Source: a virus
Lineage: Duplodnaviria; Heunggongvirae; Uroviricota; Caudoviricetes
IMG/VR virus record: IMGVR_UViG_2778261031_000008
Strand: one strand, 5' to 3'
DNA length: 23,586 nucleotides
Position numbers and translations under genes: made by a program. Below are positions 1 through 23,586 of this stretch, one piece after another; position 1 is the first letter of the stretch, and every line of letters begins with the position of its first letter. The notes beneath the pieces were generated by a model. The model was not told where the DNA came from, made no database searches, and worked only from the letters and a program-made list of their open reading frames with translations.

Positions 1-528
1 ATGACTATCAAATCAAATACGCCAGCGCACGACAAGGACTGCTGGCAAACGCCGCTTTGGCTTTTTGATGCACTGGATATTGAGTTTGGATTCTGGCTGG
101 ATTCGGCAGCGAGCGACAAAAATGCTCTGTGCGCTCACTGGTTAACTGAGGCCGACGACGCGCTAAATTCTGAGTGGGTAAGTCACGGTGCAATCTGGAA
201 TAACCCACCGTACAGCAATATCAGGCCGTGGGTGGAAAAAGCCGCTGAGCAGTGCATACAACAGCGACAGACGGTAGTGATGCTTGTGCCAGAGGATATG
301 TCTGTCGGATGGTTCAGCAATGCTCTGGAGAGTGTTGACGAAGTTCGTATTATCACTGATGGACGGATTAATTTTATCGAACCATCGACAGGGCTGGAGA
401 AGAAGGGAAACAGCAAAGGCTCAATGCTGCTGATTTGGCGACCGTTCATCAGTCCTCGACGGATGTTTACTACCGTATCCAAAGCGGCATTGATGGCGAT
501 CGGGCAGGGCGTCAGGAGGGCGGCATGA
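1..528 (+). CDS. Phage DNA N6-adenine methyltransferase (Dam-like); may be complete or 5'-truncated at the window edge
   Basis: 175 aa ORF starting with ATG at position 1; contains the NPPY motif typical of N6-adenine methyltransferases (WNNPPYS); sits in a nin-type region upstream of ninE. Confidence 0.8.
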
Positions 529-4918: not shown

Positions 4919-5038
4919 CCTCTCCATTAGTGAGTTGTATTGATCACAACTCTACAAAGAATTCATTACTGGGTAGATGAAAATAGTTTCACGATGAATG
5001 GAGGAGGCTATGTCGGTGGCTTCTTCATTGGAGTACAT

Positions 5039-5389
5039 ATGCCATCACGAATCCCAAAAGCCTGCCGTGTTCGTGGCTGCCGCCATACCACCACAGACCC
5101 GTCAGGCTATTGTGAAAGCCACAAAAGCGAAGGCTGGAAGCAATACAAACCAGGCCTGTCACGTCATCAGCGCGGTTACGGTTCGAAGTGGGATACCATC
5201 CGTGAACGTGTGCTGAAGCGTGACAAAGGACTGTGTCAGTTATGTCTGCGTGCCGGTGTGGTGCGTGAGGCGAAAACCGTTGACCACATTATCCCTAAGG
5301 CGCATGGCGGCACTGACGCTGACAGTAATCTGCAGAGCCTGTGCTGGCCATGTCATAAGGCGAAGACGGCCCGTGAACGGCTAAAGTGA
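5039..5389 (+). CDS. HNH endonuclease (terminase-associated, HK97-type packaging accessory)
   Basis: Cys pairs CRVRGC and CQLC, DHIIPKAHGG, NLQSLCWPCH HNH motif; start chosen at ATG 5039 with GGAG RBS 5 nt upstream (ORF-track start 4940 is a TTG; ATG 4994 is an alternative). Confidence 0.8.
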   Translation: MPSRIPKACRVRGCRHTTTDPSGYCESHKSEGWKQYKPGLSRHQRGYGSKWDTIRERVLKRDKGLCQLCLRAGVVREAKTVDHIIPKAHGGTDADSNLQSLCWPCHKAKTARERLK

Positions 5390-21865: not shown

Positions 21866-22440
21866 CAAACGATGATTACATCTGTCTGTTGTCGGCACTG
21901 CTGCCGCCCGGTCCGGCGTGGTCAGCCAGCGATCCGGCGATTGCCGGTGCGGCACCGTCATTAACTCGTGTTCATCAGCGTGCGGATGCCCTGATGCGGG
22001 AGCTGGATCCGCGCACCACCACCGAACTGATAAATCGCTGGGAGCGTCTGTGCGGCCTGCCGGATGAATGTATTCCCGCAGGGACACAGACCCTTCGCCA
22101 GCGTCAGCAACGACTGGATGCGAAGGTTAACCTGGCGGGCGGCATCAATGAGGATTTTTACCTTGCACAGCTTGCTGCCCTGGGCAGACCAGACGCTACC
22201 ATCACGCGATACGACAAAAGCACGTTCACCTGCTCATCGGCCTGTACTGACGCGGTGAATGCGCCGGAATGGCGGTATTACTGGCAGGTCAACATGCCAG
22301 CCGCCACCAACACCACCTGGATGACATGTGGCGATCCCTGTGATTCCGCACTGCGTATCTGGGGTGACACCGTTGTCGAGTGTGTGCTTAACAAACTCTG
22401 CCCGTCGCATACCTACGTAATTTTTAAATATCCGGAGTAA
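21856..22440 (+). CDS. Tail protein (Mu gp48 / gpI-like, DUF2313-type)
   Basis: 194 aa; immediately upstream of the tail fibre gene. Confidence 0.7.
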
Positions 22441-22443
22441 TCC

Positions 22444-23169
22444 ATGCATCGTATAGACACGAAAACCGCGCAGAAGGATAAGTTCGGCGCGGGTAAGAAC
22501 GGTTTTACCCGTGGTAACCCCCAGACTGGCACTCCTGCCACCGATCTGGATGATGACTACTTTGACATGTTGCAGGAAGAACTCTGCAGCGTGGTGGAGG
22601 CATCCGGTGCCAGCCTGGAGAAAGGGCGGCATGACCAGCTGCTTACCGCACTTCGTGCGCTGCTGTTAAGCCGCAAGAATCCGTTTGGCGATATCAAATC
22701 GGATGGTACTGTGCAAACGGCTCTCGGAAATCTTGGTTTGGGAACAGCAGCAACCAAAAATGTTGGAACCGGATCTGGTCAAATCCCTGACATGTCCAGC
22801 TTTGGTATGTCGCGAAACGGACAAACTATCTGGGATATTCTCCCAAATGGTATGATTCGACAGGCTGGCATTGTGACACTGACACCAGTTGGTAACTTCA
22901 ACGCGCAGGTGCTTGGTGGGGTGACGTACTACACCCATTACTACAGGGTTAATTTCCCCAGAGAATTCCCAAACGCACAATTAGCAACGCTGGCAACACT
23001 AGCGAGTTACGGCTTTTCGGGCCAGTCATCAATGGCTGGAAGATCACTGGCAACGGATCGCGATACTGATTCTGGCACTGACGTATCAAGAACGCGATTC
23101 ACTGTGGCGTATACGACACCCTATATTGGCGAAATACCGACTTTGCACTTTGAAGCAATAGGATACTAA
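22444..23169 (+). CDS. Tail fibre protein with conserved N-terminal anchor and AT-rich, probably exchangeable C-terminal receptor-binding part
   Basis: 241 aa; N-terminus [40 protein letters not shown] typical of phage tail fibres; GGAG RBS; composition becomes AT-richer from about 22700 onward. Confidence 0.8.
22722..22746. other. Candidate invertase crossover site (gix/hix/pix-like core AAATC-TT-GGTTT) at the constant/variable junction of the tail fibre
   Basis: CTCTCGGAAATCTTGGTTTGGGAACA resembles Gin/Hin-family sites (AAACC-NN-GGTTT core) as I recall them, with mismatches; coincides with the compositional break. Confidence 0.3.
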
Positions 23170-23171
23170 AT

Positions 23172-23405
23172 ATGGAAAATATGTATTTCAGCCCAACGAC
23201 CGTTGGTTTTTATGTTTCTGAACAAGAGCGACCTGATGATGCAGTTGAAGTCTCGCCAGAGGTGGAGGCATTTTTGAGGGAGTGTGTTATCTGGGGAGCG
23301 GATACATTTAACGTAGAGCGAGATGCAGCAACGGTGACATATCCAACAGAACTGCTTGAATATGTCACCACCTACAACGCCCCCGTTAAATATCCTGCGG
23401 ATTGA
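23172..23405 (+). CDS. Short tail fibre assembly (Tfa)-like protein, N-terminal-type domain only
   Basis: 77 aa; YFS...GFY...DAVEVSPE pattern like Tfa N-termini; lacks the conserved C-terminal WKKYRVLL motif; 3' end overlaps the convergent minus-strand Tfa fragment. Confidence 0.5.
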   Translation: MENMYFSPTTVGFYVSEQERPDDAVEVSPEVEAFLRECVIWGADTFNVERDAATVTYPTELLEYVTTYNAPVKYPAD

Positions 23406-23586
23406 CAGGCCATACGGGTTTTGCTGTATCAACGCGCATCAGCAGGACCCGGTATTTTTTCCATTCAGATAACGCGTCGGTTTCCTCATCCGTCGCGATA
23501 CCGGCATCAACCGCATCCTGTCGCCAGGCGATTTCAGAGTCCGCTTGAGCCTTTAAGCTTAATTTCCTGTCTTCTGCAATAGCCAT
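23386..23586 (-). CDS. Tail fibre assembly protein, C-terminal fragment (5' end lies beyond the window)
   Basis: C-terminal motif [20 protein letters not shown] matches the conserved Tfa C-terminus (lambda Tfa ...[23 protein letters not shown]); the ATG at the window edge is probably not the true start. Confidence 0.75.
   Translation of the reverse strand: [66 protein letters not shown]

Follow-up and report, generated by a model that had tools for sequence, protein, structure and literature searches.

A conserved 77-residue partner of a Gp53-like_C tail-fibre tip at the likely remnant of an invertible segment in an SfV-like Escherichia coli prophage

The window analysed here (the whole stretch of 23,586 nucleotides of IMG/VR virus record IMGVR_UViG_2778261031_000008) closes with two convergent reading frames located 3' of a tail-fibre gene, and we consider it likely that these mark the left arm of a frozen invertible tail-fibre segment in which a 77-residue protein is the dedicated partner of the fibre tip. 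Within this explanation, we count as established the architecture of the locus, the homologies, the selection on the 77-aa gene, its linkage to the tip in a cassette and the occurrence of intact versions of the segment in relatives. The architecture as such, in which a once invertible fibre switch has been left frozen, is already textbook knowledge, and the odd convergent pair, read as such a remnant, is explained without a new mechanism. The small 77-aa family is an uncharacterised variant of the tail-fibre assembly protein (Tfa) theme, which replaces the canonical Tfa for one widespread tip and merits annotation.

We propose that the SfV-like E. coli prophage carries here an invertible tail-fibre segment of the Pin/Gin/Cin type and that the window breaks off within the left arm of this segment; the 77-aa gene would be the dedicated partner of a Gp53-like_C tip and would occupy the slot of Mu U, P2 G and e14 TfaP. 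The minus-strand frame would be the 3' end of tfa', the chaperone gene of the other arm, encoding an ordinary Caudo_TAP protein for the alternative tip Sv'. The remainder of that arm (the tfa' N-terminus, Sv', the right crossover site and the invertase) has most likely been deleted in the window lineage, and with that deletion the fibre would be frozen in one orientation.

The 77-residue gene and its fibre tip

The window spans the late genes of an E. coli prophage that is lambdoid and SfV-like. It encodes Dam, RusA, Q, Rz, an HNH endonuclease, terminase, portal and protease and, 3' of these, a contractile tail with baseplate of the Mu type (gp44-48/YmfQ). We note that the frame of the Dam-family N6-adenine methyltransferase opens at the first base of the window (1-528) and that the HNH endonuclease gene (4940-5389) lies immediately 5' of the small terminase gene, as is usual for the HNH-terminase pairing. 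The tail-fibre gene (22444-23169, plus strand) encodes 241 aa and consists of a constant N-terminal part (Sc) fused at a crossover site to a variable tip (Sv). The Sc part is common to SfV-type prophages, and PHROG tail-fibre families match the N-terminal ~100 aa of the fibre. Residues 133-241 (22840-23166, plus strand) form a Gp53-like_C receptor-binding tip domain (Pfam PF21882, E 8.4e-7; 29.9 bits, cut-off 24.9), and the gene stops with TAA at 23167-23169. The first ~30 tip residues in the window are closer to a distant P2-like allele (L003) than those of close relatives are.

The 77-aa gene (23172-23405, plus strand), a conserved partner gene of the Sv tip in the U/gpG "chaperone slot", starts with an ATG 2 nt past the fibre stop, with AGGA located 8 nt 5' of the ATG. 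Its product is without the Caudo_TAP C-terminal domain, and neither Pfam (E <= 1), including Caudo_TAP, nor NCBIfam returned a match. The 34 homologues that we collected from Escherichia, Citrobacter, Enterobacter and Phytobacter are nearly all exactly 77 aa long and 59-97% identical; their alignment contains 21 invariant columns, and the length of the family as a whole is fixed at 75-81 aa. The window ORF has the features of this family, i.e. a length of ~77 aa, the motifs FLR..(I/V).WGA..F and YNAP and a location after a homologous tip. The dN/dS ratio of the gene is 0.08-0.24, with dS reaching ~1.5 and being saturated against the most distant copy. Among 5426 complete E. coli genomes, 146 carry the gene, at 139 chromosomal and 34 plasmid places. 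It is annotated as "hypothetical protein" in every record examined and is unannotated in Klebsiella phage KP12. We conclude that the 77-aa gene is an intact, real gene under purifying selection.

The gene always lies 3' of a tip homologous to window aa 96-241 and, in all of the 10+ loci examined, directly follows the fibre gene on the same strand. The backbones carrying tip and gene comprise SfV-like prophages, P1-like phages (in gpS, 1211 aa), P2-like prophages (in gpH, 419-420 aa), the lambdoid phage phi458 and KP12. The identities of tip and 77-aa protein to the window fall in parallel (84/99, 86/100, 77/85, 76/74 and 56/59%), which suggests that the two travel between phage backbones as one cassette. 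In P2-like prophages, the 77-aa gene is found between gpH and the sheath gene, i.e. in the gpG (Tfa) slot, and no convergent Tfa sequence was found 3' of it at these loci. Further, when the window is compared with E89, CRE1493 and pE2-2, the tip protein is 82-86% identical and the neighbouring 77-aa protein 99-100% identical; evolution or recombination appears to be much faster in the tip than in the 77-aa partner.

Resemblance to tail-fibre assembly proteins and possible role

The original prediction described the 77-aa ORF as resembling Tfa N-termini while stopping short of the conserved Tfa C-terminal motif, and both points were borne out. Residues 1-31 match PHROG 188 ("tail fiber assembly protein") with an E of 8e-5, and hhalign of the 77-aa family against the family of 136-140-aa Tfa proteins gave a probability of 77% and an E of 2e-5 over the N-terminal 35 columns only, the common motif being FS..GFY...P.DAVEVS. 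This likeness to the Tfa N-terminus appears real but modest. The C-terminal motif is lacking, in line with the missing Caudo_TAP match. AlphaFold2, run on the 77-aa protein alone as the prediction had suggested, produced a confident, compact mixed alpha/beta fold (pLDDT 90.7) from only 26 sequences. The modelled elements are strands at 5-7 and 12-14, a short strand at 25-26, a helix at 29-41, strands at 45-48 and 53-56 and a helix at 59-67. In the modelled 138-aa Tfa, strands at 2-5 and 8-10, an extra helix, a strand at 29-31, a helix at 33-39 and strands at 47-51 and 57-61 precede a helical hairpin (67-97 and 103-120). The order of elements (b-b-b-a-b-b) matches between the 77-aa model and that of the Tfa N-domain, and the 77-aa model has one short helix in place of the long helical hairpin that constitutes the Caudo_TAP domain. 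The 77-aa protein shares with Caudo_TAP proteins the gene slot, the N-terminal motif and the order of N-domain secondary structure but is without the helical C-domain that defines the family.

Among solved structures (PDB), the 77-aa model found no fold match, and a sequence-profile search of the PDB returned a chance match only (E 2). The best, weak structural match to the model was the 60-aa "tail fiber assembly protein" of Pantoea phage LIMEzero (BFVD F4N9V0; E 0.05, probability 0.91, 30% identity over 57 columns), for which no significant sequence or fold relationship to the 77-aa protein was established. T4 gp57A is an all-helical general fibre chaperone of 79 aa; it is likewise small and stand-alone, but its all-helical structure differs from the mixed alpha/beta model of the 77-aa protein. 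We also noted the motif FS..GFY...P.DAVE(I/V)S twice in tandem in two chaperone-like proteins, P0045 (192 aa) and P0044 (214 aa). A stretch of ~27 residues is common to these two proteins and the 77-aa family, and P0045 ends in the Pfam domain Phage_tail_APC; the motif is therefore a module common to at least two chaperone families. Separately, a 78-aa member of the 77-aa family from Logan (P0028) ends in YPDEPDIDWPEKPTK, the typical extreme C-terminus of Caudo_TAP proteins (..PDI.WPEKP); judged from its sequence, P0028 could be a product of recombination, or it could point to an origin of the family from a Tfa that lost its helical domain by an internal deletion.

In Mu Tfa (whose complex with the fibre is PDB 5YVQ) and in Pam3 gp25, binding to the fibre tip is the task of the N-domain, which is variable, and trimerisation that of the helical C-domain, which is conserved (PMC9608196). 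Pam3 gp25, the chaperone of the simplified fibre gp24, provides a conceptual model in that its N-terminal beta-sandwich binds the fibre tip (PMC9608196), although, unlike the 77-aa protein, it keeps the helical trimerisation domain. By analogy, we lean towards a role for the 77-aa protein comparable to that of the N-domain with which Tfa binds the fibre: it would attach to the nascent fibre at the C-terminal tip and help the fibre to fold or trimerise, might then remain on it as a cap, and would act without the helical C-domain by which canonical Tfa proteins oligomerise. Against such a function stands the fact that the likeness to Tfa spans ~35 residues and is of moderate significance. A short stand-alone chaperone, which the original prediction had offered as one of two possibilities, is the best current reading of the gene. 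The P1-like phage phi456, which plaques on MC1061 (PMC10967188), encodes gpS and the 77-aa gene, and its only Caudo_TAP match is a dead stump. This hints that the 77-aa gene is sufficient for its tip, although a Tfa acting in trans could come from the host or from another prophage.

The 77-aa protein could also be real and linked to the tip and yet have no part in assembly, being instead a virion-borne adhesin or cap that determines which receptor is recognised, or serving superinfection exclusion by masking the receptor or the fibre. We regard this as the less probable role, with perhaps a minor share of the likelihood. It would accord with the lack of the domain thought to drive fibre oligomerisation, with the observation that Mu Tfa remains on the fibre and adds to host recognition (PMC9608196) and with the ability of e14 P-segment products to block adsorption of other phages (PMC12529663). 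The difference in identity between the tip (84%) and the 77-aa protein (99%) in the comparison of the window with E89 would be odd for a specificity determinant and fits a structural cap. However, the position of the gene, its coupling to the fibre gene and its Tfa-like motif agree just as well with a function in assembly, and the protein could do both.

Returning to the chaperone reading, we see an even chance that the family constitutes an undescribed minimal partner class, in which a module resembling the Tfa N-domain would alone support the assembly or function of one Gp53-like_C tip. If true, the conserved C-terminal oligomerisation domain of Tfa would be dispensable for some fibres. The 77-aa gene and its tip would together make up a plug-in cassette of ~0.65 kb that moves between P1-, P2-, Mu/SfV-like and lambdoid phages. 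Should the 77-aa protein prove a sufficient chaperone or cap, the tip and its partner would make a compact part for host-range engineering, and the family would lend itself to finding out which of the Tfa domains is really required.

Crossover site and invertible segments in relatives

A degenerate pix/gix-type crossover site of 26 bp, CTCTCGGAAATCTTGGTTTGGGAACA, is located at 22721-22746, where the window aligns with both the left and the right crossover sites of relatives that carry pinE; it represents the left site, and a right site would be located past the end of the window. A search of the window for the 19-mer pix consensus with <= 3 mismatches found no copy, and the left site was recovered by alignment only; the 12-mer AAATCTTGGTTT is present at 22728. 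At the corresponding position, E89 has the e14-type sequence AAACCTTGGTTTGGGAGAA on the plus strand (the search match being its reverse complement, with 1 mismatch to the pattern). The inverted repeat of the e14 P segment is TTGGTTTGGGAGAAGG (PMC12529663); compared with it, the left site of the window is changed at 3 of 16 positions and the E89 copy is perfect. The mosaic boundary between Sc and Sv coincides with the crossover site: the matches to backbone relatives (dozens of prophages, 97-98% identical) end at window positions 22743-22772, and from ~22759 on the best matches include P1-like phage-plasmids of ~90 kb. On these alignments, the crossover site appears to be a hot spot of cassette exchange as well.

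A variant left half-site, CTTCAATTGGGAGAA in place of CTTGGTTTGGGAGAA, occurs in CRE1493 (L010 4721-4746), in Res13-Lact-EB12-05 (hereafter Res13; L011) and in a P1-like plasmid (L002), and its counterpart in CRE1493 is a right site of the standard form beside pinE. Inverted-repeat scans of CRE1493 did not recover the crossover sites because the left half-site differs (CTTCAATTGG).

The intact form of the segment is found in relatives, among them the chromosomes of three E. coli strains (CRE1493, Res13 and HeN100). CRE1493 and Res13 contain, in order, the fibre gene (241 aa), the 77-aa gene (99% aa identity), a convergent gene for a 136-aa Tfa, a convergent gp53-like Sv' and pinE. Their 136-aa Tfa is complete (Caudo_TAP, E 2.4e-31) and has its own, different N-domain. 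The alternative tip Sv' is also of the Gp53-like_C type and is served by this ordinary Caudo_TAP chaperone, so the Gp53-like_C class as such does not dispense with one. E. coli HeN100 has a classic two-Tfa segment with pinE and 19-nt inverted repeats (AAACCTTGGTTTGGGAGAA) that match those of the e14 P segment. Phage KP12 (OM835952.1) has a complete segment with a DNA invertase and 28-nt inverted repeats, in which the off arm carries a tip and an 80-aa homologue (49% identity) that is convergent with the gene of a 200-aa Tfa; we note that the gene of this homologue (L015 1118-1360) is intact and has no GenBank annotation. Overall, a serine invertase is present in CRE1493, Res13, HeN100 and KP12 and truncated in phi458; none was found at the E89, pE2-2 and phi456 loci or within the window. 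In phi458 (L013 4322-5805), an IS1 element lies between the 136-aa Tfa gene and the truncated Pin invertase gene, and there is no alternative tip. Here the switch has been frozen by a different route, in a phage that still plaques on MC1061.

The homologous segments in known phages are the e14 P segment of E. coli K-12 (stfP-tfaP / tfaE-stfE, pinE), the Mu G segment (S-U / U'-S', gin) and the P1 C segment (S-U / U'-S', cin). As in these systems, a constant fibre N-terminus is joined at a 26-bp site to one of two variable tips, and, in the full form seen in relatives, each tip has its own small partner gene, the partners are convergent and a serine invertase gene adjoins. Further, the crossover sequence in relatives of the window is the e14 repeat. 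Unlike e14, Mu and P1, the window shows the left arm and only the last 66 codons of the right-arm Tfa, its left site has drifted, and its closest relatives have lost the invertase and the second tip; moreover, the partner in the left arm is the 77-aa protein and not a Caudo_TAP Tfa.

One further locus deserves mention. In a Logan contig (ERR4503871_625; L009 5548-6355), the N-terminus of a P2-like fibre lies on the minus strand and ends past the crossover site in a short tail, the product having 217 aa; the tip and the 77-aa gene are inverted, together with a Tfa stump of 22 codons, and hybrid sites flank them, in a stretch without an invertase. From its sequence, the locus resembles a minimal invertible segment with one cassette in the OFF state, although a misassembly is possible since the gene order of the contig is also not P2-like.

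The convergent minus-strand frame

The minus-strand frame (23386-23586) corresponds to the C-terminal 66 codons of an alternative tail-fibre assembly gene (tfa'/U') and runs to the edge of the window. Pfam assigned it to Caudo_TAP (PF02413, the family of lambda Tfa, Mu gp50/U and P2 gpG) with an E of 1.5e-18 and 67.6 bits (cut-off 22.1), the match covering model positions 67-131 of 131 and thus only the C-terminal half. The earlier proposal that the conserved Tfa C-terminal motif resides on this strand was therefore correct: the frame is a bona fide Caudo_TAP C-terminal half, and it aligns to the full 136-aa Tfa of CRE1493. From the ORF coordinates, the two convergent 3' ends overlap by 20 nt (23386-23405). 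The same 20-nt overlap is seen in L001, L002, L010, L013 and L014, and the overlap in KP12 is 29 nt.

The ATG of the frame (23584-23586) takes up the last three positions of the window, so that how far the frame really reaches in the 5' direction is not visible there. Only E89, 23CRST010, P1-like plasmids (including pE2-2) and phi456 gave matches that reach the last base of the window; the tfa' of CRE1493 is a different allele that diverges from 23535 on. In E89, the tfa' remnant comprises ~72 codons, is annotated as "missing N-terminus" and loses homology 18 nt past the end of the window. In pE2-2 and phi456, the stump of ~94 codons contains an in-frame stop and further damaging changes, and in the Enterobacter loci L008 and L009 only 22 codons of tfa' are left. 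The 66 codons of the stump can still be read without interruption from the ATG in both the window and E89. By analogy with E89, pE2-2 and phi456, which match to the end of the window, the tfa' of the window is itself probably truncated. The stump appears to be a decaying remnant that hitch-hikes with the 77-aa gene because the two overlap by 20 nt.

The original prediction had read the convergent pair as a possible single Tfa split between the strands, with one ancestral gene cut by inversion or recombination so that its N-terminal half now lies on the plus strand and its C-terminal half on the minus strand. The 77-aa ORF does have a Tfa-like N-terminal motif and no C-domain, the minus ORF represents only the C-domain in the window, and the ends of the two ORFs abut with the overlap described above. 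We nevertheless find this reading most improbable. CRE1493, Res13 and phi458 each have the 77-aa gene and, convergent with it, the full-length gene of a 136-aa Tfa, and in relatives in which the 77-aa protein is 99% identical the N-domain of that Tfa is a different one, so the 77-aa ORF is not its missing half. The length of the family and its C-terminus (YNAP..YP) are kept in P2-like loci with no Tfa downstream, and intact homologues of 75-81 aa directly follow fibre genes in P2-like and P1-like phages, phi456, phi458 and KP12, which is the finding that the original prediction had named as refuting the split. Further, a profile search of 1.84 billion representatives returned twelve proteins at E < 1e-10, all of them <= 96 aa, and no long protein with the whole 77-aa module; the few longer hits were weak (E 5.7e-7 to 4.6e-4) and had a short stretch in common at most. 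Of the inversion or recombination breakpoint within Tfa that had been suggested, what stands is the inversion-shaped locus together with a Tfa deletion breakpoint or pseudogene in E89, pE2-2 and phi456; the split of one Tfa does not.

A two-piece chaperone, in which the 77-aa protein would bind the fibre and a Tfa C-fragment translated from the ATG at 23586 would provide oligomerisation in trans, has very little probability, and we rejected it because the stump decays step by step among relatives (from E89 to pE2-2 and phi456, to L008 and L009 and to P2-like loci). The open 66-codon frame with its ATG in the window and E89 would permit it, and the stump and the 77-aa gene travel together into P1-like plasmids, which is explained by their 20-nt overlap. 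Against it, the stump is broken in pE2-2 and phi456, L008 and L009 retain only 22 codons of it, and P2-like loci lack it altogether while still conserving the 77-aa gene. Moreover, a promoter and terminator scan of 22300-23586 found nothing above the shuffle expectation and no promoter-like site on the minus strand. Finally, that the 77-aa ORF is a dead fragment or chance ORF beside a tip needing no dedicated partner is scarcely credible, for although it belongs to no Pfam or NCBIfam family and is "hypothetical" or, in KP12, unannotated, its dN/dS, invariant length and invariant columns, its confident model and its start tightly coupled to the fibre stop with AGGA upstream all speak against this. 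The preferred reading remains that of the left arm of a probably frozen segment with a dedicated 77-aa tip partner.

In E89, a lambda-type att core (GCTTTTTTATACTAA) lies beside ybhB/bioA ~400 bp past the tfa' remnant, which places an SfV-type morphogenesis module at the lambda attachment site. We note that in this region of E89 (L001 6590-7050) the SfV-like prophage ends ~400 bp past the Tfa stump, where a lambda-like P-arm lies.
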